Shown piece by piece: positions 1,861 to 63,768 of a stretch of 64,000 nt of DNA. The stretch covers positions 38,172-102,171 of IMG/VR virus record IMGVR_UViG_3300042275_000481; one strand, written 5' to 3'. The notes under the pieces are model-generated. The model saw only the letters and a program-made list of their open reading frames with translations. It did not search any database and was not told the origin of the DNA. The position numbers and the translations under genes were made by a program. How positions within the stretch are numbered: the first letter of the stretch is position 1; each line of letters starts with the position of its first letter. The stretch is from a virus (lineage: Duplodnaviria > Heunggongvirae > Uroviricota > Caudoviricetes).

Positions 1861-1936
1861 ATTCTATTCAGATTTATAATATATATTTAAAATTTGATGG
1901 TTTCTAAAAAGAAATAAATAACCAAAAGGTTATTTA

Positions 1937-8954: not shown

Positions 8955-10502
8955 TTGAATGCTATGAAGATTACAAGAGAGAATCTAGATCCAGCAATTC
9001 TAGAAAAATTAGATCGTCTGGATCAGCTATATAATGACTTCAACGATAATAGAAAAAATGAATTTCTATCATTTGATGGGAAATCATTCCATGGACAGAA
9101 AATAAATGACTTGTCTTTAAGAAAGATGACTTCTATAAATGAATTAGAAGTACTTAAAGGGCATTTATACAAAGAAGAAACTACTATAAAAAATAGCTTT
9201 ATGAGCAACTTTAATGTTAACAATCGTGCAATAGAAAATCTAAAAACACAAATAGTCAAATTAAAAGGAATTACTTTCTTTGAGACTAAATCTCAGATAA
9301 GAACATTCAAGAAATATAAAGATTCACTTCTTATTTTAGATAGAGATGGAAATTTTACTAACTTTGATATCAAAGCAGATGAAGTTAACTATGAGCTTAA
9401 TCTTGCTGAAAAGGTAAAAAATCTGTTTGCAATTAAGAACTTCTTACCATACGATATTCTAGACTTCCAAATTTTTAGAACAGGTTTTCTATTTTCTACA
9501 TCACATTATGGTATTTTCTATGCAGATGTGGCAGAAAATACGATTGAAGTGATATTCCCAGAACAATGGGTTTTAAAAATCAAAGTAATAGATGACAACG
9601 ATATTTTATTTATTTCCAAAGATGGTAGCTTTTCTATATATGACTTTGACAGAGGACTAAAAATAGAGTCTTTCAACAAAATTAAGCAATTAAATCAAAC
9701 TATCAAAAGAATAGAAATAGGAAGAAATCCTAAATATAACAGAATTTATGTATTAGCTCAAAATGAAGCAACAAATCATACAAAACATATCCTGCATGTC
9801 TTTGAAAAAGATAATGCTGGTATAGGATACAACGATATTACAGCAAAAGTTTTCCCAGGATATAATGTATTAAATTCTATAATAAATACATTATGTTTAT
9901 GTGATACAAATGTACTAGTATGTGGACTAAGGGATAAACACCTTTTTACTTGGAAATATGATAAAGAAAAAATGAATATTAAATTTGAAGAGATGATATT
10001 TGATAAAGTATCGTTTGAAAAATTGAACTTCATTAAATTCGAAAATCAAATTCTATATACATCGTTAGATAACAAACTAATTGGAATGAATCTTTCAGGA
10101 GATGTTATCTATAATATAGAACTAGACAATAGTGAAATATTAGATATTATCTTTGATGAAAATAACAGCTTTTATGCTATTTCAGATAATAAAGTATCAT
10201 TCTATTCAATACCATCATACAACAAAACCGAGTTAGAATTTACAGCAAAAGTTTATGAAGGTCCATCAACTAATAACATTGAAATATTTGTTAAAAGCAA
10301 TACAGGTGACCAATTAATATCATTTGTTGACCCAGATACATTAGAAGAAATACAACCGAATTATCATATCATATATAACAATGATTCATTTATAAAAATA
10401 AGTGGCAGAAACGTTAAAGAACTTGTTATGAAGATAAGAATAACGCCAAGTACTGAAATTGAAGGTATAGTTGTTAATGCCAATAGAATATTCTTGAAGT
10501 AG
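8955..10502 (+). CDS. hypothetical protein
   Basis: 515-aa ORF. TTG/ATG start with an AAAGGAG RBS. Diverges from the minus-strand structural block across an 86-bp intergenic region. Confidence 0.5.
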   Translation: MNAMKITRENLDPAILEKLDRLDQLYNDFNDNRKNEFLSFDGKSFHGQKINDLSLRKMTSINELEVLKGHLYKEETTIKNSFMSNFNVNNRAIENLKTQIVKLKGITFFETKSQIRTFKKYKDSLLILDRDGNFTNFDIKADEVNYELNLAEKVKNLFAIKNFLPYDILDFQIFRTGFLFSTSHYGIFYADVAENTIEVIFPEQWVLKIKVIDDNDILFISKDGSFSIYDFDRGLKIESFNKIKQLNQTIKRIEIGRNPKYNRIYVLAQNEATNHTKHILHVFEKDNAGIGYNDITAKVFPGYNVLNSIINTLCLCDTNVLVCGLRDKHLFTWKYDKEKMNIKFEEMIFDKVSFEKLNFIKFENQILYTSLDNKLIGMNLSGDVIYNIELDNSEILDIIFDENNSFYAISDNKVSFYSIPSYNKTELEFTAKVYEGPSTNNIEIFVKSNTGDQLISFVDPDTLEEIQPNYHIIYNNDSFIKISGRNVKELVMKIRITPSTEIEGIVVNANRIFLK

Positions 10503-20078: not shown

Positions 20079-20121
20079 AAAATACTCCTTTCTAATTGAT
20101 TGTTGATATGGGTTTTAATAT

Positions 20122-20160: not shown

Positions 20161-20162
20161 AT

Positions 20163-20720: not shown

Positions 20721-20748
20721 GATTTCCTCCTTTTAATTTATTTTTTTG

Positions 20749-21765
20749 TTACTTAATACTCTTCTTAACTAAATATTCTGCAGTTCTAATAAGTTGTGCA
20801 GCATAACTCATTTCATTATCATACCAGGAAATGACCTTAACAAGCTGTTTCCCGTCTACTTCAATAAGTTGAGTTAATTGTCCGTCAACTAATGAACCGT
20901 AAGTCATACCGATTGTATCGCTTGAAACGATTGGGTCTTCTGTGTAACCAAGTGTTTCATTTGCAGCAGCTTTCATTGCGTCATTGATTTCTTGAACTGT
21001 AACATTTCTGCTAAGCTCAACTGTCAAGTCTACAACAGAACCTGTTGCTGTTGGTACACGTAAAGCAATACCATCCAATTTACCTTTTAGTTGAGGTAAT
21101 ACAAGTCCAACTGCTGATGCAGCGCCTGTAGATGTTGGAATAATATTTGATGCAGCTGTTCTGCCGCGTCTTGAATTTACACCTTTTGGATGTGGTCGAT
21201 CTAATGTCACTTGGTCATTTGTATAAGAGTGAACTGTTGTCACATAACCTTTAACAATACCAAATGAATCATCTAAAACTTTTGCAACTGGTGCTAAACA
21301 GTTTGTAGTACAAGATGCACCACTAATTACTGTTTCTGAACCATCAAGTGTTTCATGGTTTACACCAAATACGATCGTTTTTAAGTCACCTTTTGCTGGT
21401 GAATTGATAATAACTTTTTTGGCACCTGCTGTGATGTGCGCCATTGATTTTTCTTTTGACGCATAAAAGCCGGTACATTCTAAAACGACATCAACATTTA
21501 ATTCTCCCCAAGGAAGTTGTGATGCATCTTTTTCAGCATAGATTCTAATCTTTCTCCCGTCAACTACTAAGTAGTCTCCCTCAACGGAAATCTTATCCGA
21601 CATATAACGACCTTGTGTGGTGTCATATTTTAATAGGTGTGCTAATTCAGCAGGATTAGATAAATCGTTAATCGCTACCACTTCAAATGTTGGATTGTCA
21701 TGTACAAGTCTGTACGCTAATCTCCCGATACGACCGAAGCCGTTAATTGCAATTTTTGCAGCCAT
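20749..21765 (-). CDS. gap: type I glyceraldehyde-3-phosphate dehydrogenase
   Basis: N-terminal NGFGRIGR Rossmann motif. Active-site [10 protein letters not shown]. Full-length 338 aa with conserved WYDNE near the C-terminus. Confidence 0.9.
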
Positions 21766-21863
21766 AGTTTATTTCCTCCTTTTATATTTTATTTCACTTC
21801 TCGAACCAATATTATAATATATGTTTAAAGAGAAAGATAGACCATATTGGTCTATCTTTCATT

Positions 21864-22412
21864 TTATTCAGGAATTACTAATATACCATAATTTCCATCA
21901 TTACGTTTGTAAATAGTCGAAATTAAGGCATTATTATCTTTATCTTTGAAAATAAAGAATGAGTGTCCAAGAAGTTCCATTTCTTCAATTGCTTGTTCAC
22001 GAGTTATAGTTTCTAACGGAATAAACTTTTCCCTTGCAATCTTTCCTGTTTCTTCTTGTTCTTCATTATAAATTGCTTCTAATTCTTCTTGTAAATCAAG
22101 AATATTAAAAGCTAATTTATTTCCATTTCTATGCTTCATTCGCATAGTTTTATATTTTCTAATTTGTCCTTCTAATTGATTAACAACTTCAATAACAAGA
22201 GCATAAAAATCTGTACCAGAATGTGACGCTCGGATGTTGCCTGGAATTGCTATTTCTAATTTTAGTTGATGTCCTTCTTTCTTGAGCGTTGCTCTTCCAT
22301 CTACACTATCAACAAACCTCTTTAACTTTTCTACCTTCTCAATAACATAAGTTTTCATTGCATCGGTAAATTCAATTTTTTTCTTGTCTGAGTAGAATTC
22401 CATAATTTTCAT
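21864..22412 (-). CDS. hpf: ribosome hibernation promoting factor (long HPF/YfiA family)
   Basis: N-terminal RaiA/HPF fold region. C-terminal dimerisation domain ...EEMELLGHSFFIFKDKDNNALISTIYKRNDGNYGILVIPE is characteristic of long-form HPF of Firmicutes. Confidence 0.75.
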   Translation of the reverse strand: MKIMEFYSDKKKIEFTDAMKTYVIEKVEKLKRFVDSVDGRATLKKEGHQLKLEIAIPGNIRASHSGTDFYALVIEVVNQLEGQIRKYKTMRMKHRNGNKLAFNILDLQEELEAIYNEEQEETGKIAREKFIPLETITREQAIEEMELLGHSFFIFKDKDNNALISTIYKRNDGNYGILVIPE

Positions 22413-22518
22413 CCCTTCTTTTTTAATTATAATTTATTTCTTCTTCAGGTCATATTTATAATATATAAATAAAAGCATATTTACCCCCTTAAGTCTAGAG
22501 GTAAATATGCCTTATTTT

Positions 22519-22770
22519 TTATGCTAAGAACGCCTCTAGATCCTTTTTAGGTCTATAACCGACCATGGTTTGCATGTCATCTCCATCTAATTTAATTATA
22601 GTTGGGACTCCAGCAATTCCATACGACATAGCTTCTAATTGGCCTTCATCAGTGTCAATGTAATATTCTGTCATATCTAGGTTTTGTTCTTGTTTAATTT
22701 CTTCTAATATTGGTGTGATCATCTTGCAAGCGCCGCAATTTTGGGATTTGAATAATAATATTTTTGCCAT
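22519..22770 (-). CDS. thioredoxin/NrdH-like redoxin
   Basis: 83-aa thioredoxin-fold protein with a CGAC redox motif. cis-Pro region GVPTII. Next to the RNR gene. Confidence 0.65.
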   Translation of the reverse strand: MAKILLFKSQNCGACKMITPILEEIKQEQNLDMTEYYIDTDEGQLEAMSYGIAGVPTIIKLDGDDMQTMVGYRPKKDLEAFLA

Positions 22771-22985
22771 TGTTAGTTCTCCTTATTGTTTTTGTACTTT
22801 TTTAATCTTTGCCCAATCGTTTGTTCAGAGCAGTTAAAAATTCTTGCAATTTCTCTTTTTTTAAGGCCTTGCTCCAGTAATTCTTTCATTTTTTTGTCAT
22901 CTTTTTCTGAAAAATTTTTAGATACTGTATTCTTTTTAGCTTTACTGCTAGATTCTAAAAGTTTAATTGGAATTTTTATATGTTC

Positions 22986-23555: not shown

Positions 23556-23870
23556 TCATTCTAAATTGTTCATATGGTTATTGAGTTTGTTTCCATCTTT
23601 ATGATTAACAAAAGATTTATTACTAGGATTATCAATAAACATTATAGCTACTAATCTATGGACCATGAATTGTCTTCTTTCCATATTTTTCTGTAAAGAT
23701 ACTCTATAGTATCCATTTTCAGATAATCCTAGTTTTTTCAATTGTCCCTTATATTTTTTGTTATTAATAACCCTATCTAATGATCTTATATTTCCTAGAT
23801 TTGATACTTGATAGTAACTCTCGTATCCAATTATATCTTTCCATATTTCTGTCATATTACCTACCTCCAA
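23556..23870 (-). CDS. HNH homing endonuclease (NUMOD4 + HNH_3 motifs), free-standing
   Basis: EIWKDIIGYESYYQVSNLGNIRSL (NUMOD4) and VHRLVAIMFIDNP...VNHKDGNKLNNHMNNLE (HNH). Confidence 0.65.
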   Translation of the reverse strand: MEVGNMTEIWKDIIGYESYYQVSNLGNIRSLDRVINNKKYKGQLKKLGLSENGYYRVSLQKNMERRQFMVHRLVAIMFIDNPSNKSFVNHKDGNKLNNHMNNLE

Positions 23871-23933
23871 TTTTTAACTATAATTAATTGTTATAAAAAA
23901 TTAAAAGTAAAATATATGATGTATGCTATAGGG

Positions 23934-24465
23934 CTACAATCTATCAGAAGCACAACTACCAGTAGCACAATCTGGATCTTCATCTGCTTCTTCTTTATAG
24001 TATTCATCAAGTTCTAAATATTTTGTTAGTAATTCGTGGGAAAGGTCATCTAATCCTTCAATAGCTTCTTCATATTCTTCTTTAGTAATAGTTTGATATG
24101 GAGCTTGTGCATATTGATGGTCAGTCAATGGTAAGAATGAAACCGCTGTGAAAGATTTCCAGTTTTCATATAACCATTCTGTTGCTGCTTCCCACTCATC
24201 ATTTTGAACAGATACTGTAATCGATGTATTTTGGTCAGTATAGTGTTCTTGGAATCTCTTATATCTGTCTAGTTGTTCAATAACTGAGACGTCAAATTTA
24301 GTTCTCTTTGCTTCTGATTTAACTGGGAAATATATTACAGCTGTTGTATCAGGTCTTGTAATATCATCTTCAATTCTCCAGTTAAGCTTACTAATCACTT
24401 TGAACATTGGGTTTGTTTTATCAATGCGAATAGTTCTATAATAATATGGACTGTGGCTCATATGT
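23934..24465 (-). CDS. nrdJ: class II (NrdJ-like) ribonucleotide reductase, exon 3 of 3 (C-terminal part)
   Basis: Continues the conserved ...SS-G-x-E-P...Y-x-RR region as (V)HMSHSPYYYRTIRI. C-terminal redox cysteine pair DCATGSCASDRL. Confidence 0.65.
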
Positions 24466-25938
24466 CGTTTTATTCTATCAAGGTCGTTAATCTTGATACG
24501 TTCTCTTATGAACTGCTTATATTTTCATATAAGACTAGACTATATCACGATCCTTCTAAGGATCCTTTCCATTTCGATTTAAGGGATTTTCACCCACCAC
24601 TTGGCCCTACTCCTGTTGACAAATTTATATTAGCGCTTGTCCTTGGGATAGTCGTTGCACATCTAATTTAATTTTAACTTTTCTTTTAAGGTTTCTTCTA
24701 TTTTTAATTTGATTTTTTTCTTAGAGAGACTAGATACATCAATCCTCAAGAGCTGCTCGCCTGCAAAGTTATTTCTAATATTATCCCTTTGTTTAATAAT
24801 TTCAAGTTCCTTTGCTAGACTATCTCTATTAAATGATTCTTTATGAAATCTTCCATCAATTTCTATAAATTTAATATCATCATGTTCTATTTTAAAATCA
24901 AATTCAAATTTATCATTACCTATTTGTTGATAGTAGTTTTGTTGAAATATTATGTTATTTTTTTCTAAAAATAAACGAGTTATTTTTTCTCCATAAGGTT
25001 CTCTTTCACAGGTACATTGTAAATTTTGGTTTATCATATTTACAGTAGTATACCATTCTCTTGGTTTATCATATTTACAATTAATATGTTTTACCTTTAT
25101 TTTAGAATGAGCATTTTTGTAGTTAGATGAATCTAATAATTCAAAACCTTTCTGTTCTAAGAGTTTTTTAACATCTTCAATAGATCTTGTCCTAGATTTA
25201 ACTCGTTTTTCCTGGCCACAAATAGGACACCCAAAGCCGCGAGTTAAATTATTTGGAGAAACTTTTCACTCATGACCACAAATATTATGTCTATGTAATA
25301 TCTTAGTATCTTTATTAATATATTCTTCTAAAGCAATATATTCATTATTATAAATATCATATAGATTCTTTTTATACTCTTGGTTCGTAAGCTTAAATGT
25401 ACCATTGCAAATAGGACATCCATGTTTACCAGATAAAATAGAATTAGGCGTTGTTTTTCACTCATGACCACAAATATTATGTCTAATAGTGATAGCTGTA
25501 CGAGTTCCTTTATATTCTTCTAATGCAGTATATTCATTCTCATAAATATGATGGAGTTTAAATCTAAAAGCTCTATCGTCAAGTATTCTTCCACTACAAA
25601 TAGGACATCGCTGATTTGATGATAAAAATTTTACCAGTGGCATTTTTCATGTGAAACCACAATCTAGATGCTTAAATTCCATCAGTGATTTATTATTAGT
25701 ATAATCTGATTCATTAGAAATTAAAATATATTTTCCATGCCCTTTTTCAAAAACCTCATTTTTTATATCAACAAATTGTTTTCGTTTCATACAATACACT
25801 CTCCCTCTTATTAAAGAATAATATATTGTTTAGTTAAAATTAAATTATTTTGCTCAGGATTACCATATCTTTTGACTTAGGCTTCCCTGAATTAAAAAAG
25901 TTTTCTTATACTATTGCTAGTATAAGGCGCAATATTTT
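24466..25938 (-). mobile_element. group I intron (RNR intron 2) carrying a heavily decayed homing endonuclease gene
   Basis: Proposed 5' splice site after U of ..gctggcgt. The 3' end ...aataaaacg (omega G) is homologous to the end of the ORF-less Clp intron. R (24645-24660) and S (24548-24556) elements present. The 5' portion (aattcagggaagcc...atcctgagc, 25850-25905) resembles the 5' portion of intron 3. Confidence 0.55.
24663..25790 (-). pseudogene. multiply frameshifted homing endonuclease (zinc-ribbon + Vsr/DUF559-like family)
   Basis: ATG at 25788-25790 with an AGGGAG RBS. Fragments are MKRKQFVDIKNEVFEKGHGKYILISNE..., then ...NQRCPICSGR... (25458-25643), then the nuclease-domain remnant IEIDGRFHKES...LLRIDV (24663-25037). 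All are in different frames. Confidence 0.5.
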
Positions 25939-26798
25939 ACGCCAGCGCTACTTGAATTAGCAACTAATCCAAGTGTTCCTGAAGGTTTAACAGCACTTAC
26001 ATTAAGTGAATGAGATAAACCAAGTTCATCAGCATACTCATCTGCAGACCTTCTAATTACTCCGTAAAGCCAATCCATAAATTTATTTTCTTCTTCAATA
26101 TTCATACCTGTTGCTTCAATCATATCCATCCATGAAGATGGTGAAACACCGAGTAATCTATCTTCTTCTTGTGTTTTGTCCCACTCTTCTAATTCAAGCG
26201 TGTTCATGGTGACACGATAAGCAGAACGAGTTAAAACACGAAGGTCTTTTTCAAGTAAATCATAGTTGATAGTTTTATCTTCATTTAGGTAAAATACAAC
26301 ATTGAATGTAACTAAGTTACATGTCTGTTTTGAGCGTAACAAAATCTCGGCACAAGGATTGAGTCCTCTAGCTTGAGGGTGTCTCTTCTTGATTTCACTT
26401 TCATTCATAAATCCTGGTTCACCGAATGACTTGATATTCTCCATCCAAGCAGTTACTTCTTCCTTAGTTGGTTCATATCCTTCTTCGACAACCATTGTAT
26501 TATTTGAAATCCAATAGTGAGAAATTTTTCTATCACTAAAATCCGTGAAGTTTGTTTTGGCTTTTGCCATTTCATCATCTGTTCTTGAGAATAGTGCAAT
26601 CATAGCACTTCTTCTTACACCACCAACAACAATCGCTTCAGCAATTGAGTTTGCAATGTGCATCATATGAATTGGTCTTAGTTTTCCATCAATTGGCGCT
26701 TTTGTAAGAATGTTTCCGTGACTATCTAAATAATCTCCAGTAACAACTTCATGCATCTTTTTGATAGATTGAATGAATGGTTCGGCACCACTTGCATA
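25939..26798 (-). CDS. nrdJ: class II (NrdJ-like) ribonucleotide reductase, exon 2 of 3
   Basis: Contains GGVRRSA, the active-site loop NPCAEI (N-x-C-x-E) and the KPSGTLGLVANSSSAG motif. The exon ends inside the Val codon ahead of intron 2. Confidence 0.7.
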
Positions 26799-27987
26799 CA
26801 TATGTTAGCTCATAGTTTCTTATGAGATCAGACTATATCTTCAACCCTAGAACTATCTAGGATTGCCTCGCACTTCGAACTATAAGTTCTACTCTACTCA
26901 CTTCTTTACTTAGATTATGTTCTAAGCTATGTTTTCGATAGTCGTTGCACGTTCAAATATATCATCTAGAATTTCATGTATCTGACTAATTTGATTATAT
27001 CTTATTCTTATTAAATTGATATTATTTTCTTTTGCTATTTCATTTTTTCTGAAGTCATTTTCTTTCAAAATTTTGAATGATTCTTCCCCACCCCAATTAT
27101 CTTGAGGTATAAAATGTTGTATTCCGTCAAACTCAACTATTAAATTTTTTTCTTTAATCCAAAAATCCAATCTTAAATTTCCAAATAATTTATGCGTTTT
27201 ATTATATTTATATTTAATATTTTTAGAATTCAAATAATCTATAATAATTCGTTCACCATTTGAAGCTTGACAAAATGGACATCTTTGACCTTGTTGAAAG
27301 TCATTAGGTCTCATAACAAAAGTATTTTTGCATTTTTTATGATAATGTTTTATTTTTGTATATGAATTAATATATTCCTCATTTACAGTATATTGATTAG
27401 AACCTAATTTCTTAACTAAATTTTTATACTGTTGATGTGTTTTTCTAATTCCGCCATTGCAAACCGGGCATCTTCTTCCAGCTGAGATGAATTTATTGGC
27501 TGTTGCATAGTAATCATTTCCACATTTTTTATGTGTAAATTTCAACTTACTGTGATTATTCTCATAATTACCTTCAACTATATACTCATCTTGTACTAGA
27601 TCATATATTTGTTTTTGTATATCTTCTAGTGTGAATGCATGAAATTTTTTTCTTTTTTCATTAGCACATAACGGACAACGTCTTCCTTGTTTGAATTTAT
27701 CAGGTGTTACTGAATAAATATTACCGCAAGCAAGATGTTCTACTTTTAATTTAGTTTTCGAAGTAGTATAAGTTTCTAACCATTTATACTCATTCGCATC
27801 ATCAAATTTTTTATTAATATCATTTAAGAATTTTTTATGTTTAGTCATTTTAATACAGTCCCTTCTATAATAATATATAAGCTTCGCTCAGGATTGTCTC
27901 CATCATTACATGGTAAGAGTTTCCCTGAATTCACGAGGTTGCTATAATATATTGTTATATTAAGGTGGCTATGCTTTTGGGGCGTTA
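26799..27987 (-). mobile_element. group I intron (RNR intron 1) carrying an intact homing endonuclease gene
   Basis: Exon 1 ends ...TFGG with U before the in-intron TAA. The intron ends in G just before tat-gca-agt (YASGAEP). R (26927-26940) and S (26830-26838) elements present. Confidence 0.6.
26922..27848 (-). CDS. intron-encoded homing endonuclease: four tandem zinc-ribbon (CxxC...CPxC) modules plus a C-terminal Vsr/DUF559-like PD-(D/E)xK nuclease domain
   Basis: Repeats of H..CGN.Y...P..F..G.RCP.C. C-terminal IVEFDGIQHF...D...K...INLIRIRY. The 3' end reads through the R element of the intron core. Confidence 0.6.
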   Translation of the reverse strand: MTKHKKFLNDINKKFDDANEYKWLETYTTSKTKLKVEHLACGNIYSVTPDKFKQGRRCPLCANEKRKKFHAFTLEDIQKQIYDLVQDEYIVEGNYENNHSKLKFTHKKCGNDYYATANKFISAGRRCPVCNGGIRKTHQQYKNLVKKLGSNQYTVNEEYINSYTKIKHYHKKCKNTFVMRPNDFQQGQRCPFCQASNGERIIIDYLNSKNIKYKYNKTHKLFGNLRLDFWIKEKNLIVEFDGIQHFIPQDNWGGEESFKILKENDFRKNEIAKENNINLIRIRYNQISQIHEILDDIFERATTIENIA

Positions 27988-28986
27988 ACCACCGAAGGTT
28001 TTGAGTGGCTCTCCAGCTGGTCGGATGTTATTAAACACCATTCTAATATTCTTATAATCATGGTCAATTTCATAACTCATGTATTTTAAGAATTCAGTTA
28101 CAGCTTTACCCCAACCATCTCTGCTGTCTCCAACAATAATTGAAATAGTTCCATCAAGTTTTAGAACCTGAGTTTTGTCTTTTCTCATTGTCTTTGGAAG
28201 TGGGTTGTAAGGCACAACTTGTAATTTTACATCGCTTCTAAATCTTGGAAGTTTTTCTGCAACATCCCAAGTAATTCTGTATCCAACTCCAGCACCAACA
28301 GATAATAGATATAAAATATCATAGAATGAGTCTAATGTGTCTGGTTCAATAAATGAGCAGTTGAATAAACTTAAAGGATAACGTTCTGCAGCACTTGATC
28401 CACCTGTGAACATTGCACGTCCACTAAGGAAAGCTCTAAGATTAAACTGCATGTCAAATAATTGCTCAGCTTCTCTTTTAAGAAACTGCATAACTTTTTC
28501 TTCACGTTCACGAGTATCCATATTGATATTATGGTCTGTGGCACGTAAAATTGTTTCTTTAAATGTTTCTCGTCTACCTAATTCAACTACATCTCGACTA
28601 TATGTTCTCAAATAAGTAAATTTACTTACAGGGCCCATATGTTTTGGGTAGCTGTCATAGTTCACAAGGAAACTCGGTGCTAAGTACTCAGAGCTATAAA
28701 CAACATCTTTCAACGATTCTCTTCGTTTCGCTCTTGCATTTCTTCTTAATATATAATGCTCAACAGCTTCAGGATATTCCCTGATTGCATGTTGCACTTT
28801 GTTTTGAATCTCTTCTATTCCAATACCATCATAAACAACTACAGATTTAGCCATCTCTTGAATCTTTGAGTATAGTTCCTCTGCTCTTTCTTCTCCATAA
28901 GTCTCTCTGAACGCTTTGTAGATTGCCTGTTCGATTTTGGAGACATCGAATTTTTGCAATTCACCAGTTCTTTTACGAATATACAT
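27988..28986 (-). CDS. nrdJ: class II (NrdJ-like) ribonucleotide reductase, exon 1 of 3 (ATP-cone N-terminus)
   Basis: N-terminal ATP-cone (RKRTGELQKFDVSKIEQAI). Exon ends ...KTFGG. Confidence 0.7.
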
Positions 28987-30772: not shown

Positions 30773-31369
30773 TTATTTATCAGATGGTTTCTTGATTTCG
30801 TCAATAATTCCATATTTTAATGCATCTTCTGCAAACATCCAACTGTCACGTTGTGTATCTTTTTTAAGTTGAGTAACTGTCTTGTTACATGATTTTGCAA
30901 TCATCTTAAGCAATTTCTCATTTAATTGTTTTGTAAAGTCAAGAGAAACTTCCATATCTTGGATATTTCCTTGAGTTCCACTAGATACTTGATGAAGCAT
31001 TACAGTTGCATTTGGTAGCGCAAAACGCTTGTCACCTTGAGACAGAATAGCTGCGCCCATAGATGCAGCAAGACCTTTAACACAAGTATAAACTGGTGCT
31101 TCAATATCTTTCATAACATCAATAATAGCCAATCCGTCAAGAACGGATCCTCCCGGACTGTTGATGTATAATTGAATAGGTTGTTTGCTAATTTTATTCA
31201 AATGTAACAATGTTTGTGTAATATAGCTAGCTTGTCTTTCATCAACAACACCTTCTAAATGGACAACACGGTCGTCAATTTGTGCACGTTGAATATCATA
31301 TTTAGGTTCTGAGTAATAAGTCCCTGAACTAGTCATAGGCTTATTAATATTTTTCGGATCAAAATTCAT
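30773..31369 (-). CDS. clpP: ClpP-family serine protease (S14; ClpP/NfeD-like)
   Basis: YINSPGGSV, Ser nucleophile in GLAASMGA, His in MLHQVSSG. 198 aa. Confidence 0.8.
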   Translation of the reverse strand: MNFDPKNINKPMTSSGTYYSEPKYDIQRAQIDDRVVHLEGVVDERQASYITQTLLHLNKISKQPIQLYINSPGGSVLDGLAIIDVMKDIEAPVYTCVKGLAASMGAAILSQGDKRFALPNATVMLHQVSSGTQGNIQDMEVSLDFTKQLNEKLLKMIAKSCNKTVTQLKKDTQRDSWMFAEDALKYGIIDEIKKPSDK

Positions 31370-31433
31370 ATTTTCCTCCTTGATTTTTAGAATTGAGGGG
31401 AAGATTTCTCTTCCCCAATTTAATATTTTTTAT

Positions 31434-32543
31434 TTATGGATTTATAATAATTCCGGATCCATCAGTAATAACTTGTGGCAACTCACCATTCCATGTATTT
31501 AAATACTCGATATATTGAATATAATCAAAGATTACCTTTAATTCTTCTGGAGTACTTCCTGAAGTATCAACTGTATATGTTGTAACCTCTGTAACTGGAT
31601 CTGTGGTCGATGTAACTGGCATACCTAATGTTCTGGCAACATCAACGACCTTAGCTGACAATGCAGCTGCTTCAGCCTGAGCGATTGCAAGAATAGCGTT
31701 TGCTTCACCTTTAGCTTCTTCTAGAGCCGATTCTGCTTCAAGAATAGTTGTTGCTAATTGTTGTTCAGCCTGAATGATGGCAATTTGTTTTTCAGTTTCA
31801 GCTTTTAATCTTTGTTGATCTGCAATCATCTTAGCTTCAACAGCTGCTTCAAAAGCATCTGAAAATGCAAAATCTGTAAGATAAATCGCAACAATTTCAA
31901 CAGGCATTCCTCTACCATTAATTTCCTCAACAATTAAGGTTTCTATAGAAACAGATAATGCGGATCTTTGTGAAATTAAATCCTCAGCGGTATATTGTGA
32001 TAAAGACGATTTAGTTCTTTCCATAACAAGCGAACCTAATCTATCTCTAACATTTTGAACATCTCCACCATATTTTTCATAGATTGTTTGAGCTTGTTCT
32101 CTCTTAATTCTCCACTGAACTGTAAGCATTGCGTCTACAGGCTGGGAATCGTTAGAATAGAATGATATTCCCATATCTTCAAGATTGTCATATCTGATTT
32201 CTTGAACTTTTAATGTATATTTGTGATATTTTTCTAATGGGCTTTTAACCTTTAAACCAGGTTCATATACAACTCCTTGAATATCTCCTAATTGAGTAAC
32301 AACCACTACTTCGGTTGCATCAATAGTTTGAAACATTCCAAATAATACAATTAATGCGCCAAGTGGAGCAAGTAACACAAGTTTACGGAATTTCCATCCG
32401 AACTTATATTGTTCTTCTGTATATTTTTCAACAGTTCCATCATATTTTACTTTTTGTTTCTCAACAATATATGAATGTTCTCCTAGGCCAAGACCAATGA
32501 ATAAACCAATAACTAAAATAAATGCAAAAATAATTAAAAACAT
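31434..32543 (-). CDS. SPFH/band-7 (stomatin/prohibitin/HflKC-like) membrane protein
   Basis: N-terminal TM helix. SPFH core domain. Long Ala/Glu/Gln coiled-coil (AEQQLATTILEAESALEEAKGEANAILAIAQAEAAAL). Confidence 0.75.
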   Translation of the reverse strand: MFLIIFAFILVIGLFIGLGLGEHSYIVEKQKVKYDGTVEKYTEEQYKFGWKFRKLVLLAPLGALIVLFGMFQTIDATEVVVVTQLGDIQGVVYEPGLKVKSPLEKYHKYTLKVQEIRYDNLEDMGISFYSNDSQPVDAMLTVQWRIKREQAQTIYEKYGGDVQNVRDRLGSLVMERTKSSLSQYTAEDLISQRSALSVSIETLIVEEINGRGMPVEIVAIYLTDFAFSDAFEAAVEAKMIADQQRLKAETEKQIAIIQAEQQLATTILEAESALEEAKGEANAILAIAQAEAAALSAKVVDVARTLGMPVTSTTDPVTEVTTYTVDTSGSTPEELKVIFDYIQYIEYLNTWNGELPQVITDGSGIIINP

Positions 32544-32612
32544 AATTTGTACCTCCCAATTTTCTTAAAATTTTTTACTCAAAGTTTAAAAGAAGGGAAT
32601 CCGAAGATTCCC

Positions 32613-33216
32613 TTATACTGATACTACTTCTTTTTCTTTTTGCTTGGACTCGATACGATCAATAGCCACAAGCATTTGTTTTCTTACAGCGCGCTTCAAT
32701 CCACGTGCACCATAAGTTTCGATATCAGCTGTCTTAATGATATCATCGATATCAGATTTAATGAATTTAACATCTTTTTCCATTTCCATGTACTCTTGAT
32801 ATTCTTTCTTGTATCTGTCGATTAGTGTTTCAGCGATATCTTTTTCAAGACCGTTGAACACAATGATTTCATCTAAACGGTTGATGAATTCTGGACGGAA
32901 ATGCTTTTCAACATTTTCTCTAATTTCGCTTGACTCAGTTTTATGAGTTACGAATCCAGAACTTCTAGGTTTAGCAAAGTCTTTACCATAACCTAAGTTC
33001 GTTGTGAAAATAATAATCGCATTTCTAAATGAAACACGATTTTTATGGTTATCAGTCATTTCACCTGTATCTAAGATATTCAATAATGTATCGAATACTT
33101 TTGGATGAGCTTTTTCAATTTCATCAAATAGAACGACTGAGTTTGGATACTGTTTGATTTTTGCAACTAAACCTGATTCATCATCATGGCCTATATCTTT
33201 TGTGTTACGATAGTTC
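32613..33216 (-). CDS. ClpC/ClpA-like double-AAA+ ATPase, exon 3 of 3
   Basis: GHDDESGLVAKIKQYPNSVVLFDEIEKAHPKVFDTLLNILDTGEMTD (D2 Walker B/sensor), RPEFINRLDEIIVF (sensor 2), GARGLKRAV. The 5' boundary is uncertain (33191-33216). Confidence 0.65.
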
Positions 33217-33491
33217 GCTAAACTATCTCTTTATATTTCTATAAAGAACTGACTATATCTTCACCCGATAAACGGGGTACTGCATTTCGAGTTCGCTTGA
33301 ACCCTACTCCCATAAGGGATAGTCGATGAACCTTCATCTCATTGAGATGTTTGGCTGCGGATTGCCCAATCTCTTGCCTTTTTACCATCTCTCCGACGTT
33401 ACTCTTCGATTAACAGGTAGCTAAGAGCTCTAAGGGGTTTCCCGCAATTAACAGTATTTTCTTTTGTATATCACTATACAATGGGGCGTAT
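33217..33491 (-). mobile_element. ORF-less group I intron (Clp intron B)
   Basis: R (revcomp of gggatagtcgatgaacc, 33316-33332) and S (33251-33259) elements. Conserved gcggattgcccaatct and gctctaaggggtttcccgcaatta blocks. Proposed 5' splice site after U of tgg-att. The 3' splice site is ambiguous: ..tagcg or ..gatata. Confidence 0.5.
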
Positions 33492-33628
33492 AATCCACCC
33501 AGGGGCACTACCAGTAATTTTTGTTACATCCATTTCAGTACCATATTCACCCATATTTAATTTGATTAAGTTTCGTTCAGCACCACAGAATTGCTTTGCA
33601 ACAATTTTACAAGTTTCGGTTTTACCGA
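33492..33628 (-). CDS. ClpC/ClpA-like ATPase, exon 2 of 3 (46-aa micro-exon)
   Basis: Encodes VGKTETCKIVAKQFCGAERNLIKLNMGEYGTEMDVTKITGSAPGWI. This is the remainder of the D2 Walker A (GPTG|VGKTE) through the ...G-A-P-P-G-Y-like motif. Confidence 0.6.
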
Positions 33629-33938
33629 CCGTTTATATTCCATCGAAATCGTTAATTTCAATGCGTTCTCTTATGAACTGCTTATACTTTCATATAAGAC
33701 TAGACTATATCATCACCTTTTTCAGGTGGTTTACATTTCGACTCACTTGAGTCTACTCCTTACGGATAGTCGTTGAACTTTTCTCTTATTAAGAGACTTA
33801 GCTGCTGATTGCCCAATCTACACACTTTTCAAGCCTTGGCTTTTCCTCACGGATCGCAGTGGCAGTGTAGCTCTAAGGGGTTTCCAGCAATTAGTAAACT
33901 TTGCTTATGTAAATTTCTTTACATAGGGGCTAAATTTA
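33629..33938 (-). mobile_element. ORF-less group I intron (Clp intron A)
   Basis: Exon 1 ends GPTG (ggt, U) followed immediately by TAA. The intron ends ..ataaacg (G) before gtcggtaaaacc. R (33754-33768) and S (33693-33701) elements, plus the gctgctgattgcccaatct and gctctaaggggtttccagcaatt blocks. Confidence 0.65.
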
Positions 33939-35408
33939 ACCCGTAGGACCTGCAAATACCATTGATGTCAATGGTTTCTCTGGATCGACTAATCCTCTTT
34001 CAATGTATCTTAGGTTCTCAATAACACGGTTCAATGGTCTTTCTTGACCTAATAGAACACGTTTCAACTCTTTTGCAGTTGCTTCTGTTTTGTTGTCAGC
34101 AATATTGATATCATATTTGACTTTAATCGCTGTGCGAACATCATCTGTGAAAACAATTTCACCGTCTTCATTGAAAACAGTTGAACTGGCAAATGCAAGT
34201 TCCAACATATTAATTGCTTTTGCTGGATTTGCTTGGTCAAGGGTGTATTTTTCAGAATAGTCTAAGACTTTTCTTACTAAATCGTCCTCAGCCTTCTTAC
34301 CAAAATATTCTTCGATATCAGGTTGTACACCTTTAAGAATTTGATAAGTTTGTTGTTTTGTAGGCTCACTAATGTTTACCTTATGGAAACGTCTTTCTAA
34401 TGCTTTGTCTTTGCTGATGTGTTTTTGATATTCATCATCAGTTGTAGTCCAAATCATTTGAATTTCACCACGAGTGATATATGGTTTAAGAATATTACCA
34501 CCACTTGCAGCTCCTTCTGCGTCTCCTAATTTCACCATCATATGTGCTTCATCAATGAACAGAATTACTTCTGGATTTTCTTTGACAAGTTTAATGATGT
34601 TCATAAGTTTTTCTTCAAAATCACCACGATATCTAGTTCCAGCAACTAATGCACCTGGATCTAATTGGTATACAATTTTGTTTCTGAACTTTTTAATAAC
34701 ATTTTTATTATTAATACGATTTACGAATTCATATACTGCAACAGTCTTACCTGTACCAGCAGGTCCAACGAGAATCGCATTTCTAATTGATTTTCCTGAC
34801 AAAGCCATTTGAATTTGATTAACAGCATTGTCTGCACCGATTACAACTGGTTTCGCTTGTTTCACATATCTGTTAAGATTTGTTAACTCACGGATTTTTT
34901 CCAATGCATCGATTTCTTGTTTAGTTGCAACAATATTAAATGCTTCAACAATTTTCTCAGACATTTGGTCAACTTTTTGAGTTGAACCGCCGAGAACAAA
35001 TTCAAGAATACTTCTAAGTTTATAACTTGGGTCTGAAAATAACACTTTAATAAGGTCTTCAACTTGCATTTGTCTGCGTTGTGCAAGAGCATCTCTTTTA
35101 AGTTGATTTCTTACAGCATTACCTTCTTCATGCCAAGTAACTTCAAAACGTTCTCCGCCTACATCCAATCCAGGATATAGTTCCAAGAATACCTTTTCAA
35201 AATCTTCTCCCTTAACTTCGTATTCTTGTAAGATATTCGTTAGAGTTTCATACGTCTCAGCAAATCTTTCAGTATCTTTATTCTTCTTCAAGAAGATTGT
35301 TGTACCTAAGAATAGATGAGGTGTACCAACCCAATTTTGATAGTTCTTAATTGCAATTTGTCCCGCTTTTTGCGAAATCATTTCGACTTCTTGTGATAGT
35401 GCCTTCAT
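33939..35408 (-). CDS. ClpC/ClpA-like ATPase, exon 1 of 3 (Clp-N repeat, D1 AAA+, start of D2)
   Basis: D1 Walker A GPAGTGKT. Walker B ILFIDEAH. ALERRF. Ends at ...MVFAGPTG (first half of the D2 P-loop). Confidence 0.75.
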
Positions 35409-38851: not shown

Positions 38852-38948
38852 AATTTTGTTTCCTCCCTGTTATTTGTTTTGTCGAGTTATAATTTTCCAG
38901 TAACTCGCATTTATAATATATAGTTTAAAACTTATTTAAAAATACAAC

Positions 38949-42469: not shown

Positions 42470-43348
42470 TTAATCCTCCTCTTTAAGAATATCCTTTGCT
42501 AAGATGTCACATATTTCATTAAAATTATTGTCATCGTGACCTCTTGTCCATTTAAACAGAATAACATGGTCTGTTTGTTTTGATAAATTGTAAATCTCTT
42601 GAATCAATTCTTTATTAGCTATATCTTTCTTTGCATAGTTTTTGAAGTTATTATTCTTCCAAGTATAATACCATTCCCTGAATACTTTAACGCCATATTC
42701 AGAATCTGATATAACAACTTGGTACTTCTTCTTTCCAAAGTTTTCTATAGCTACTTTAATACCAGTTAGTTCACCGATATTATTAGTTCCGTCTTGAACT
42801 TTTCCAGATAATCCTAAATAACTAAATTTCTTATCTGTGAATTCATCTAGAACGCCATTTGAATCTTCTTGCAGCAATTTCGCTACACCATAACTCGCTT
42901 CGTTAGTATCTTTTTTAAAGCTACCATCTGTATAAGTGACATCAATCTTTTCATCACTTATTTCGGCAAGTATAGATATTTCAAGGAATATCTTTTCTAA
43001 TACAATATGATTACCTTGATTAAAAATTGTAGCTAGTGAATATATGATATTATTTGTTACCTCAATCACACTATTAATTTTCTGAAATAATGTTTCTTGC
43101 AACAATATCATCTGCTCTGTAAGATTTACTGGTGCGTCTAATATTGGAACCAACACATAATTATAATTTAATTCTTTTGCCTTTCCTGGCAGCTGTGTTT
43201 TTATCTTTGATGTGTAAGCCAGTTCTTTCAAAACTTTCTGATCCAGAAAGTTCTCCATACTAGTGCTATCATTAACAAAGATGTTGCAAATTATATATTT
43301 CAATATATTTCTCCTCCTGTAAATAAATTTATATTGCTCACATCTCAT
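42470..43348 (-). CDS. protein with C-terminal RNase H1-like domain
   Basis: YTDGSFKKDTNEASYGV, SDSEYGVKV..W...WKNN, WTRGHDDNNFNEICDILAKD follow the RNase H1 DEDD pattern (TDGS ... DS.Y ... W.KGH.G...NE.AD.LA). Confidence 0.55.
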   Translation of the reverse strand: MRCEQYKFIYRRRNILKYIICNIFVNDSTSMENFLDQKVLKELAYTSKIKTQLPGKAKELNYNYVLVPILDAPVNLTEQMILLQETLFQKINSVIEVTNNIIYSLATIFNQGNHIVLEKIFLEISILAEISDEKIDVTYTDGSFKKDTNEASYGVAKLLQEDSNGVLDEFTDKKFSYLGLSGKVQDGTNNIGELTGIKVAIENFGKKKYQVVISDSEYGVKVFREWYYTWKNNNFKNYAKKDIANKELIQEIYNLSKQTDHVILFKWTRGHDDNNFNEICDILAKDILKEED

Positions 43349-43419
43349 AAATATAATATATAAATGAAAAAAATATTAAGAAAAGACAAACCAGATGGTT
43401 TGTCTTAAATATTAACTAA

Positions 43420-51063: not shown

Positions 51064-51201
51064 ACATACCTCCTATGAAGCTTAAATTCTCATGGTGCTT
51101 CAAGTATATAATATATTTTTATATTAATTTTAAACGTTTAAATTTTTTTGACTATGATAAATAAGGACTAACTTTTGTTAGTCCTTTTAATTAAAATAAT
51201 A

Positions 51202-61558: not shown

Positions 61559-62218
61559 TTACAGTTCAATTATGTTACTCTTATATTTTGTTTGGTCGAT
61601 GTCCTCAATATAGACACCCAAGCTTTCTAAAAGAATATATCCATTTTGCATATTTTTACTTACCATTGTTCGGTAGTCAATAAGTGGTCGTAGATATTCA
61701 GGAATTCTTTCCACACCTTTTGGAACAGCAACAACGCTCATTCCAAATCGTGAAATATCAATTTCAGGTTCATCTACGTTTCGATTAAATACTGTGCGAC
61801 TAATTGCGCCATATTTTTTCGGATAAGTATCTTTTAGTTTCTCTAATTCTGGATGATTTTCATCTACTGTTTTTAACTTAAGTAGATTTACTTTTTCTGG
61901 TGGAACTATTTGATTTTCAGGTTCTAGCGCATTCCATATAATTGCTCCTCTAACCTGTTCAAGCGTAGATGGATCTTTATATTGCTCAAATTGCTCTATA
62001 CTCTTTGGAAGTGAATATAATAATTCTCCGCCTCTTAGTGATTCTTCAATTTCTAAACCTAATTCATCAAATTTATTAATAATAGTTCTAATATTAATAT
62101 CTTCCGCTGACAGAATATCTTCCTGTAAAATTGTCGTAAATTGTTCACGTAATTTCTTAGGAACGTTTGTTTTCCTTATGGCTAACATATATCTTCCATT
62201 GAGTTCGTTAACTCTCAA
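61559..62218 (-). CDS. 3'-terminal exon of an intron-interrupted gene of unknown product
   Basis: The ORF begins with TTG inside conserved intron-3' sequence (..cataagagaacg|cattgagag..). The true acceptor is probably ~62180-62200. Confidence 0.45.
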   Translation of the reverse strand: MRVNELNGRYMLAIRKTNVPKKLREQFTTILQEDILSAEDINIRTIINKFDELGLEIEESLRGGELLYSLPKSIEQFEQYKDPSTLEQVRGAIIWNALEPENQIVPPEKVNLLKLKTVDENHPELEKLKDTYPKKYGAISRTVFNRNVDEPEIDISRFGMSVVAVPKGVERIPEYLRPLIDYRTMVSKNMQNGYILLESLGVYIEDIDQTKYKSNIIEL

Positions 62219-62455
62219 TGCGTTCTCTTATGAACTGCTCATACTTTCATATGAGATGAGACTATATCTTCATCTTTCGATGTTTCCTGTTTCGGACCAC
62301 TTGGTCCTACTCCTTACGGATAGTCGTTGAACCTTCATCTCATTGAGATGTTTGGCTGCGGATTGCCCAATCTACACACTTTTCAAGCCTTGGCTTTTCC
62401 TCACGGATCGCAGTGGCAGTGTAGCTCTAAGGGGTTTCCCGCAATTAAGGAAATT
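62219..62455 (-). mobile_element. ORF-less group I intron (unknown-gene intron 2); boundaries approximate
   Basis: R (62318-62333) and S (62249-62257) elements, plus the gctgcggattgcccaatct and gctctaaggggtttcccgcaatt blocks. Nearly identical to Clp intron A. Confidence 0.55.
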
Positions 62456-62461
62456 TTATAA

Positions 62462-62550
62462 GAGCATAACTGTTTACCCTTAATATCAAGAACTGGTTTG
62501 TCTAATAGACGCCCAAGTTCACCTGTAATTAAACCGGCATACATAATTTT
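62462..62550 (-). CDS. internal micro-exon of the unknown intron-interrupted gene (approx. boundaries)
   Basis: Only one frame is open between the two introns: KIMYAGLITGELGRLLDKPVLDIKGKQ... It begins right after an intron-terminal G (..gagtttaattg|aaaatt). Confidence 0.4.
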
Positions 62551-63768
62551 CAATTAAACTCGCTAAGTTTAATTCGCTTTCGCTGCTCATATTTTCATAT
62601 GAGATAAGACTATATCTTCAGATATTTATTGAACGTAAATATCTGTCTTCCTTTTCCAATAGGCTTCTATTGTACTCGCATTGCGATAGTCGTTGAACTT
62701 TTTTCTTAAAATTAATTCTTCAAGTATATTTTCAAGTTGTTTATAATTTTTATATGATAATCTTAATAGTGTATACTTAGATAATTGTATAATATTATTT
62801 TTTCTATTGTCTCGTTCTCTAATAACATCAATAGATTCAAATAATGATTTTTCTTTAAAATGTTGTATTCCATCATATTCAATTATTAGATTTAAAGAGT
62901 CAATAATAATATCTACTCTTAAATCCGTATTGAATAATTTAGAATCAAATTCAAATAAAATATTATTTTTTTCTAAGAACTGAATTATTTTTCTTTCACC
63001 TTTAGAAACTTTCTTAGAACAAATAGGACATCTACTAGCAACAGATTTTGATATGAAATTGTTCGCTTTTACGTCCCATTCATGACCACATTTATTATGT
63101 CTTAGTTTAATTTTTGTTCTAGTGTTTGTATATGGTGATATTAATGAATACTCATCCCCAACAGTTTCCTCTAGTTTTCTTTTAAACATTTCTTCAGTCC
63201 AAGTTCCTTTCCCAGAACAATACGGACAAGAATTTTTTTGATTCAAAAGATTATTTGCTCTCATTTTGAATTCATGACCACATTTATTATGCTTAAAAAT
63301 TGATGATTTATTTGCATAACCTGAATAATCTAATACTGAATACTCATTATCTAATTCTATTTCTAGTCTTTTTATAAGATTTTTTTCAGTTAATCTTATA
63401 GAACCTGAACATTTAGGACACCTTCTTCCATTATTAAACGTATTAGGTGCTACTAAATACTCATGGCCACATTTATTATGTCTTATTAAGATTTTAGTTT
63501 TTGAATTTATATAATCATTCCCAAGAACTGTATATTCCATTCCAACTTGATTTTTTACTTTGTGTTTAAAACTTTCTAGTGTATCTTTTTTCATAATATC
63601 ACTCCTTAATAATTTGTTCAATGAGTGACAACATGAAATAAAAAGTTCTTAATTTTAAGAAACTTAGCTGCTGATTGCCCAATCTTTCAGATTTTCAAAC
63701 ATTCACGCTCACTTTTGCAAGTCACGTTGTAGTTCTGAAAGCTCTAAGGGGTTTCCAGCAATTAAAAA
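62551..63768 (-). mobile_element. group I intron (unknown-gene intron 1) carrying an intact homing endonuclease gene; 5' boundary approximate
   Basis: R (62674-62689, inside the 3' end of the HE ORF) and S (62618-62626). 5' blocks gctgctgattgcccaatct (63661-63679) and gctctaaggggtttccagcaatt (63742-63764). Confidence 0.55.
62626..63621 (-). CDS. intron-encoded homing endonuclease (zinc-ribbon repeats + Vsr/DUF559-like nuclease)
   Basis: Four H.KCGHE(Y/F/W)...N....RCP.CSG modules. IIEYDGIQHF...D..R..K......LLRLSY. Confidence 0.6.
   Translation of the reverse strand: MNKLLRSDIMKKDTLESFKHKVKNQVGMEYTVLGNDYINSKTKILIRHNKCGHEYLVAPNTFNNGRRCPKCSGSIRLTEKNLIKRLEIELDNEYSVLDYSGYANKSSIFKHNKCGHEFKMRANNLLNQKNSCPYCSGKGTWTEEMFKRKLEETVGDEYSLISPYTNTRTKIKLRHNKCGHEWDVKANNFISKSVASRCPICSKKVSKGERKIIQFLEKNNILFEFDSKLFNTDLRVDIIIDSLNLIIEYDGIQHFKEKSLFESIDVIRERDNRKNNIIQLSKYTLLRLSYKNYKQLENILEELILRKKFNDYRNASTIEAYWKRKTDIYVQ

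Follow-up and report, generated by a model that had tools for sequence, protein, structure and literature searches.

Why should a bacteriophage carry a gene whose cellular counterparts take ribosomes out of translation? The question is raised by an open reading frame (ORF) in a 64,000-nucleotide stretch of viral DNA (positions 38,172 to 102,171 of IMG/VR record IMGVR_UViG_3300042275_000481; hereafter the window). A first-pass annotation, made from the letters alone, had described its product as a phage-encoded long-form ribosome hibernation promoting factor (HPF) with the C-terminal dimerisation domain that drives 100S ribosome formation. The best overall explanation of the results, and on balance a likely one, is a stably inherited phage long HPF that would be made early in infection and would dimerise vacant host ribosomes in order to bank or protect them.

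The gene and the parts of its predicted product are the following:

21864..22412, minus strand: HPF ORF of 182 codons, opening at an upstream ATG (22412) that is an alternative start
21864..22403, minus strand: HPF coding sequence from the preferred start (179 codons plus stop), in agreement with the profiles, the full-length phmmer match and the starts of relatives
22413..22418, minus strand: Shine-Dalgarno sequence GAAGGG, read from the sequence, 9 nt upstream of the ATG at 22403
22128..22403, minus strand: N-terminal S30AE domain (NTD; aa 1-92), beta1-alpha1-beta2-beta3-beta4-alpha2, predicted module for binding the 30S decoding site
22044..22127, minus strand: flexible acidic linker (about aa 93-120, ~28 residues), predicted local distance difference test score (pLDDT) ~50
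21867..22043, minus strand: C-terminal S30AE_C domain (CTD; aa 121-179), predicted homodimerisation module bridging two 30S subunits

The true start is probably the second ATG, at 22403 (MEFYS..., 179 aa), because the Shine-Dalgarno sequence lies 9 nt from it but abuts the first ATG, and because relatives start at the equivalent position (P0002-P0005 and P0007-P0012, with MEFYS in most of the closest).

Both halves of the protein were recognised by curated profiles: Pfam PF16321 (Ribosom_S30AE_C) matched aa 121-177 with 64.5 bits (cut-off 25, E 7e-18), and PF02482 (Ribosomal_S30AE) matched aa 11-89 with 56.4 bits (cut-off 23.7, E 5e-15). The lack of a significant HPF profile match had been named beforehand as the outcome that would speak against the annotation. 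The NCBIfam model for the HPF/YfiA family (TIGR00741) scored 49.7 bits against a cut-off of 40.9, and the equivalogs for gamma-proteobacterial short HPF and RaiA/YfiA were not matched (NF007780, 24.6 bits, cut-off 125; NF007654, 20.6 bits, cut-off 158). The old family label "sigma-54 modulation protein" is a historical name and was not taken as a sign of a transcriptional role. The C-terminal peptide quoted in the first-pass annotation is the exact C-terminus of the ORF at 21864..22412.

In phmmer searches of PDB sequences the protein aligned end to end with Staphylococcus aureus HPF (SaHPF; 5ND8, E 7.7e-23), Lactococcus lactis HPFlong (5MYJ) and 8UU4, and its last 66 residues matched isolated CTD crystals (PSrp-1 3KA5, E 6.5e-13; 5NKO/6T7O, 3K2T and 3LYV). 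An AlphaFold2 model built from a 118-sequence alignment had a mean pLDDT of 82. The NTD was modelled at about 90-95 (above 90 throughout the E-H-E-E-E-H topology) and the CTD, an alpha plus beta-sheet fold, was also confident, whilst residues 95-121 of the linker region had low confidence. The top Foldseek matches in the PDB were HPF of the S. aureus 100S ribosome (5NGM, E 4.9e-13) and 5MYJ. For the NTD, template modelling (TM) scores normalised to the target were 0.68-0.79 against HPF/YfiA NTDs, with a root-mean-square deviation of 2.5-3.1 A; for the CTD they were 0.81 against SaHPF-CTD (6T7O) and 0.87-0.92 against 3LYV, with 3KA5 within 0.81-0.92. Net charges of NTD, linker and CTD (+6/-7/-2) resemble those of SaHPF (+5/-9/-3). 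Among ~4,600 long HPFs the linker is poorly conserved and typically 24-34 residues long, with a range of 16-62 (PMC5620043), and the ~28 residues of the phage linker lie inside the typical range.

The strands of the predicted dimer interface read FFIF / ISTIY / GIL in the phage protein and FFVF / VNVVY / GLI in PSrp-1. Hydrophobic character is kept at most of these positions, the interface-facing residues having been assigned by alignment to the description of PSrp-1 and L. lactis HPF (PMC5620043), not from coordinates. The phage protein thus has the two-domain architecture and predicted fold of the Bacillota long HPFs (SaHPF 5ND8/5NGM/6FXC, with CTD 6T7O; L. lactis 5MYJ; Clostridium acetobutylicum PSrp-1 CTD 3KA5), and shares with them a basic NTD and the CTD motifs ELLGH-FF(I/V)F...Y(K/R)R.DG.YG. 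It differs in being only about 27-33% identical to SaHPF, in two loop deletions in the NTD, and in its setting, as the cellular gene stands in an hpf-secA-prfB type context and the phage gene behind a phage-type promoter motif.

Among 105 cellular long HPFs, 48 columns of the alignment reach a conservation of 80% or more; the window protein has the identical residue at 31 of these and one of the same class at 38. The contact residues considered in the NTD were Tyr31 of the Thermus thermophilus protein, which meets h24, and its Arg86 and Arg93, which meet h44; Arg86 contacts the h44 phosphates (PMC6177447). Kept contact or core residues (T. thermophilus to window) are Tyr31 to F30, Tyr77 to Y67 and Arg93 to K83, position 30 being Tyr in six of the 13 phage clade members described below. 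By every sequence and structure measure applied, the protein belongs to the long HPF family, with rRNA contacts that are partially conserved. The initial description of a phage long HPF with a dimerisation domain therefore stands, as both domains, the linker, the fold and the hydrophobic interface residues are present. Its framing of 100S-forming long HPF as a feature of Firmicutes was narrower than it needed to be, long HPF being common outside beta- and gamma-proteobacteria (PMC5620043).

The window has a strongly one-sided gene arrangement (44 of its 47 ORFs of at least 150 aa lie on one strand), a GC content of ~32%, and genes for a virion structural protein, a RecJ/DHH exonuclease and many HNH/NUMOD4 endonucleases. 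It also encodes a fragment of RNA polymerase (RNAP) beta-prime whose best tblastn matches were in phages PBS1/AR9 (33% identity), followed by Staphylococcus jumbo phages; the AR9 counterpart, gp153, is annotated as "non-virion RNAP subunit, beta-prime C-terminus". From these RNAP matches the window is assigned to an uncultivated jumbo phage distantly related to AR9/PBS1 (Takahashivirus). A megablast search of positions 20000-24500 against GenBank phages gave no match, hence no close cultivated relative. AR9 and PBS1, the closest cultivated relatives by RNAP beta-prime, differ from the window phage in that neither they nor the Staphylococcus jumbo phages gave an HPF match when GenBank phages were searched by tblastn.

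Relatives of the HPF itself form a sharply bounded set. A search of 5.8 billion proteins returned a tight group (P0001-P0012) with 46-86% identity, after which identity dropped abruptly to about 40% or less; below the drop, the few source names were all Clostridia. An exhaustive hidden Markov model search of 1.84 billion cluster representatives gave 28 proteins at E <= 1e-30, including P0121-P0125, which carry the signature of the clade. Scanning metagenome contigs added only L012 to the clade, the other loci reaching at most 38% identity. In IMG/VR a scan with the single HPF protein gave no match, and a scan with the clade alignment found one contig only, the same as L002. A motif-seeded scan of one genome for each of 185,579 species found none with more than 39% identity, and thus neither a donor lineage nor a prophage copy.

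The genes around HPF follow a common order, namely DUF2201, ClpB-like, (Band7), ClpP, unknown, ribonucleotide reductase (RNR), thioredoxin, HPF, (glyceraldehyde-3-phosphate dehydrogenase, GAPDH), an unknown protein of ~190 aa, and DHH. This order holds in the window, in L001 (300,986 bp), L002/L003/L004 (44-64 kb; the 44-kb contig of this set is also in IMG/VR as UViG_3300031645_000921), L008 (36 kb) and L009/L010, and the short contig L177 shares the ORF downstream of HPF. Throughout the related contigs HPF is constant while the accessory genes around it vary. A neighbour-joining tree of 55 sequences grouped the 13 phage HPFs as a monophyletic clade in all 100 bootstraps; this clade has a long stem and is not nested in any sampled cellular group, and its members are at most 40% identical to any cellular HPF. 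The GC content at third codon positions (GC3) of the window gene, 0.18, is within the range of other phage genes. Ratios of non-synonymous to synonymous substitution (dN/dS, Nei-Gojobori) among the five closest genes were 0.11-0.22 overall, 0.08-0.23 for the NTD, 0.04-0.23 for the CTD and 0.2-1.0 for the linker. Taken together, synteny, monophyly, identity gap, GC3 and dN/dS speak for a gene that was acquired once, long ago, and has since been inherited vertically, with purifying selection acting on both folded domains. We regard it as nearly certain that the protein is a long HPF and that it comes from a phage.

A second, more divergent set of two-domain HPF-like proteins of 160-168 aa was also observed (P0126, P0127, P0129, P0130, P0133, P0135 and P0137). 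These share hallmarks of the clade, namely loss of the alpha2 Asp, absence of a KPM motif and a C-terminus ...I(V/E)C(R/K). The sole context for the set is a 1.8-kb contig of 28% GC carrying P0126 (L176), with unrecognisable neighbours.

When would such a protein be made? The signals at the locus and their counterparts elsewhere in the window are:

22465..22451, minus strand: AR9-type early (virion-RNAP) promoter motif TTTATATATTAT-aaatat-G upstream of HPF, with a predicted start at the G at 22451
21821..21807, minus strand: second early-promoter motif, TATATTAT-aatatt-G, preceding the GAPDH gene
22472..22513, minus strand: thioredoxin terminator hairpin with T-tract (-22.8 kcal/mol, z -6.7), directly upstream of the HPF motif
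21832..21860, minus strand: perfect 13-bp hairpin directly after the HPF stop codon (-19.7 kcal/mol, z -7.6)
1869..1883, 21807..21821, 22451..22465, 38906..38920, 43346..43360 and 51101..51115, minus strand: coding-strand copies of TATATTAT-N6-G

The early promoters of AR9, mapped by Lavysh et al., have the form AAATATATATTAT-(6N)-G+1, and their use by the virion RNA polymerase does not depend on protein synthesis (PMC5312081). The same TATATTAT-N6-G motif is common to AR9/PBS1 and the window phage, also upstream of the orthologous non-virion RNAP gene: in the AR9 record the sequence AAATATATATTAT-taactt-G, shortly before gp153, is annotated as an "early promoter", and the window orthologue is preceded by AAAATATATTAT-atactt-G at 51115..51101. 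In the window, TATATTAT-N6-G occurs in eight copies against 1.66 expected (six of the eight on the coding strand), most of them 30-60 nt upstream of a Shine-Dalgarno sequence and ATG, and the decamer TATATTATAA occurs in eight copies against 1.2 expected (seven on the coding strand). Additional TATATTAT sites, such as those at 25825, 19316 and 13209, have no G at +7; they stand ahead of other small genes. AACA, the core of the AR9 late motif AACA-N6-TA/G, which may not be the late motif of this phage, was absent by inspection from the 130 nt upstream of HPF.

The hairpin at 21832..21860 is likely a terminator or a 3' stabiliser of the HPF transcript, and the predicted 48-nt leader is unstructured (-0.8 kcal/mol). 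HPF looks like a transcription unit of its own, because the AR9-type motif is bracketed by two strong hairpins, and we infer that it is a monocistronic early gene. The element of terminator plus motif upstream of HPF is kept in L092, L008 and L002, the last with a protein only ~50% identical. Two contigs with HPFs 81-83% identical to that of the window, L091 and L093, have an IMPDH/GMP-reductase-like gene (PF00478) before HPF (L091 1021..3233; L093 1035..2105). L091 also has an F420-ligase-like gene (PF01996), the insertion lying between thioredoxin and HPF; in both contigs HPF is without a promoter motif of its own.

The ribosomal activities of cellular long HPFs are well described. The NTD fills the mRNA channel and the A, P and E sites of non-translating ribosomes in S. 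aureus, L. lactis and T. thermophilus, and the CTD homodimer contacts uS2 (plus h40 and bS18 in S. aureus and L. lactis), joining two 70S ribosomes into a 100S particle; the abundance of 100S is inversely correlated with ribosome degradation (PMC5620080, PMC5620043, PMC6177447). In S. aureus, the NTD on its own suffices to silence ribosomes, and dimerisation is the work of the CTD alone (PMC5620080). Because these activities are separable and both phage domains are under selection, ribosome-bound dimers appear to be the selected activity, and the phage HPF quite probably binds ribosomes and dimerises. AR9 infection strongly lowers host mRNA (PMC5312081), and for this reason banking of ribosomes by an early HPF is proposed. 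The virion-delivered phage RNA polymerase would transcribe HPF as its own unit from the AR9-type early promoter, with protein appearing within minutes of infection. The basic NTD would then insert in the 30S decoding region of vacant host 70S ribosomes, occupying the mRNA channel and the A, P and E tRNA sites, and the CTD homodimer would link two ribosomes into 100S, as in S. aureus, L. lactis and Bacillus subtilis. As host mRNA vanishes in the takeover, the freed ribosomes would be banked and shielded from nucleases until phage messages need them. Such banking would make sense for a large phage whose cycle is long and whose genome also holds maintenance genes (ClpB-like, ClpP, Band7, thioredoxin and GAPDH).

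In two related contigs (L009 and L010) a gene for ribosomal protein bL31 (PF01197, 75 aa, 9325..9552) lies between the RNR large subunit gene and thioredoxin-HPF; tblastn found none in the window or in the other clade loci. bL31 has been implicated in the stability of 70S and 100S ribosomes (PMC6375957). The neighbouring proteostasis and maintenance genes and the bL31 of the relatives fit with ribosome banking. As a role for the phage HPF, ribosome preservation is put forward tentatively, as a serious possibility; the first-pass annotation, too, had suggested that a phage HPF could park or protect host ribosomes.

Several observations count against this interpretation. The Lys at position 76, which is Lys in 95% of cellular HPFs and corresponds to T. 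thermophilus Arg86, is replaced by Gln in 12 of the 13 clade members; the alpha2 Asp, present in 100% of the cellular proteins (T. thermophilus D81), is I or V in most of them. In the phage clade the KPM motif that opens the CTD has become ETI, the C-terminal Glu has become Val, and two loops are shortened. Because such clade-fixed changes fall at positions that are nearly invariant in cells, we call the phage protein a variant, which may bind with a different strength or to different partners. In the subclade of the window one interface position is Thr, where the other clade members have Val; L. lactis HPF also has one Val-to-Thr interface change (PMC5620043). The only phage HPF tested so far, the short protein of rV5, was not found on Escherichia coli ribosomes and left 100S levels unchanged (PMC6375957), and in vitro the formation of 100S is inhibited when long HPF is in excess (PMC6177447). 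That HPF would be made early is an extrapolation from AR9, a phage with only about 33% identity in RNAP beta-prime, and silencing ribosomes early looks costly for a phage.

What else could explain the gene? That it is non-functional, being mis-assembled host DNA, a recent passenger or a decaying pseudogene, is extremely improbable. Contamination of this kind does occur: tblastn of HPF against GenBank phages gave 11 weak matches, and all three that were inspected (H6, H3 and H1) were rejected as long phage HPFs, being fragments of bacterial chromosomes in UNVERIFIED phage records, two of them with HPF-SecA-PrfB synteny. The rejected loci are an S. aureus hpf-secA-prfB fragment (L005, OR844990.1), a Clostridia-like nifS-iscU-mnmA...hpf-secA-prfB region (L006, MT835701.1) and a locus with ABC transporter genes beside hpf (L007, MT837636.1). 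The gene of the window, however, keeps its position across independently assembled contigs, some as long as 301 kb, that come from several samples. It belongs to a monophyletic clade distant from cellular HPFs, is phage-like in composition, and is an intact ORF with low dN/dS and a conserved phage-type promoter motif, so that the synteny and selection results effectively refute this explanation. An early and abundant HPF might instead serve to shut off host translation by removing free host ribosomes from initiation, which would blunt the synthesis of host and defence proteins; abundant phage mRNAs would out-compete or re-recruit ribosomes, and dimerisation would only tighten the block. The NTD of long HPF does silence ribosomes by blocking the mRNA channel and the three tRNA sites (PMC5620080, PMC6177447), the gene has a predicted early promoter, an unstructured leader and a good Shine-Dalgarno sequence, and immediate targeting of ribosomes has a jumbo-phage precedent (PMC10914614). 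HPF cannot tell host from phage mRNA, however, so phage translation would be hit as well. The NTD alone would suffice for shut-off, yet the CTD is at least as constrained, and the bL31 co-located in relatives points to stabilisation of ribosomes, not inhibition. Such a weapon is therefore considered unlikely.

The clade-specific substitutions bear on a third proposal, in which the phage HPF competes with that of the host and thereby keeps ribosomes open to recruitment in cells that are starved or arrested by defence, either as a weaker, easily released occupant or by forming non-productive CTD heterodimers with host HPF. K76Q and the changes in the alpha2 Asp, the KPM motif and the C-terminal strand could weaken binding or alter partners. 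The idea was proposed for viral HPF and bL31 by Mizuno et al. (PMC6375957), and ribosome hibernation (RMF) rises in DRT2-mediated defence (PMC13434031). Nevertheless, the protein keeps its overall basic charge, its hydrophobic interface and most of its contact residues, with no sequence sign that either activity is lost, and a decoy would need one domain only, yet both are under purifying selection; anti-hibernation is thus rather doubtful. Equally doubtful is the alternative that the long HPF, rather than simply storing ribosomes, is a counter-defence or persistence device. Starting in the first minutes after infection, the decoding centre would be plugged and the uS2/h26/h40 face of the 30S subunit buried in 100S, shielding ribosomes from RNases and from abortive-infection toxins that target ribosomes or rRNA, and the clade-specific substitutions would tune ribosome release by the phage. 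As a persistence device, HPF might let the phage wait in starving or sporulating cells, in a carrier state with the translation apparatus intact. A carrier state has been reported for PBS1/AR9-type phages. If the counter-defence reading were true, viral selection on the two HPF domains would testify independently to an adaptive value of dimerisation itself, beyond that of silencing.

The genes and introns near HPF in the window are:

22519..22770, minus strand: thioredoxin (PF00085, 51.6 bits; phrog_22)
20749..21765, minus strand: type I GAPDH (TIGR01534, 415 bits; phrog_21942, E 2e-121)
30773..31369: ClpP, in a proteostasis-type module upstream of RNR
31434..32543: SPFH/Band7 protein, in the same module
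32613..33083 and 33936..35408: two ORF fragments of a ClpB-like AAA+ ATPase, completing the module (30773..35408)
33229..33506, 33681..33948 and 62238..62540, minus strand: group I introns (Rfam RF00028, 85-98 bits)

The first-pass annotation had placed HPF in a host-physiology mini-cluster with a redoxin and GAPDH. Both neighbours are indeed there, on the same minus strand, but the three genes are not one operon, because a strong terminator splits thioredoxin from HPF and GAPDH has its own promoter motif and a patchy presence (found in the window, L002 and L008, absent from L001, L009 and L012). Wherever RNR and thioredoxin both occur on related contigs, as in L001, L008 and L009, thioredoxin directly follows RNR, with which, judged from this gene order, it belongs functionally rather than with HPF. 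GAPDH is 60-62% identical to GAPDHs in records labelled Staphylococcus, Listeria and Enterococcus, and is thus far closer to cellular genes than HPF is; it looks like a later, more mobile acquisition, and its similarity hints at a Bacillota host. Mislabelled records such as L005-L007 (named "Staphylococcus phage SA 1306 Kay" and "Bacteriophage sp.", UNVERIFIED) yield false "phage" matches for host genes, GAPDH included.

HPF therefore sits at a hot-spot of accessory genes beside an RNR-thioredoxin module. Every related long contig has the ClpB-like ATPase and ClpP, and some also have Band7; the module is an unusual maintenance cargo that fits a long infection cycle. The first two group I introns lie between the ORF fragments of the ClpB-like ATPase, and the third between ORFs 61559..62218 and 62626..63621, near HNH endonuclease genes. 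The class II RNR (23556..28986) is split into at least three ORFs, 27985..28986 (ATP-cone and RNR_Alpha), 25917..26801 (barrel) and 23934..24461, the last ending in ...CATGSCASDRL, which resembles a C-terminal Cys tail; HNH/NUMOD4 homing-endonuclease genes are interleaved with it (26922..27848 and 23556..23870). A search with Rfam found no known RNA element at the HPF locus.

How does the gene compare with factors already known from phages? Mizuno et al. (2019) reported HPF (PF02482) genes from viral metagenomes and from seven cultivated phages, of which six are rV5-like and the seventh is Cronobacter GAP32 (PMC6375957; bioRxiv 10.1101/174177). Like the window protein, the short HPFs of rV5, FV3 and the Cronobacter jumbo phage GAP32 are virus-encoded members of the HPF/S30AE family in large myovirus-type genomes. 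Unlike it, they have 105-111 aa and no C-terminal dimerisation domain, and their hosts are gamma-proteobacteria, in which 100S formation needs RMF. They did not surface in the tblastn search of the window HPF against GenBank phages, being too distant. The window protein is not a single-domain short HPF of about 105-115 aa, as it has an extra 85 residues of linker plus CTD; accordingly, phrog_8990 (profile length 115) matched only its NTD (E 1.1e-9, aa 8-97), and no PHROG matched the CTD. The jumbo phage phiKZ has an early protein, PhiKZ014, that attaches to host ribosomes as soon as infection begins (PMC10914614); it is alike in concept only, as a jumbo-phage factor on host ribosomes at the start of infection; it is an unrelated protein for which no homology is claimed. 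The binding site of PhiKZ014 is on the 50S subunit, at the central protuberance and 5S rRNA, and the protein remains bound while ribosomes translate, whereas HPF takes the 30S decoding site of non-translating ones. Full-text literature searches on HPF in phages and jumbo phages returned nothing beyond Mizuno et al., and phages go unmentioned in a 2025 preprint about how hibernation factors evolved. Short phage HPFs, like a few ribosomal proteins carried by phages, are thus already known, and no description of a long, dimerisation-competent HPF in a bona fide phage was found in the literature.

Compared with earlier phage HPFs, what is new is not a kind of system but a two-domain, apparently dimerisation-capable protein in a jumbo-phage lineage that is predicted to be made early. 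The completeness of the factor, its long retention, the purifying selection on both domains and an apparent immediate-early promoter argue that control of ribosome hibernation is a selected part of the infection programme. Although the phage is uncultivated and the role is one that we infer, its HPF offers a small, easily tested lead into how giant phages manage the ribosomes of their hosts, and an evolutionary handle on why ribosome dimerisation helps when the NTD alone can silence.

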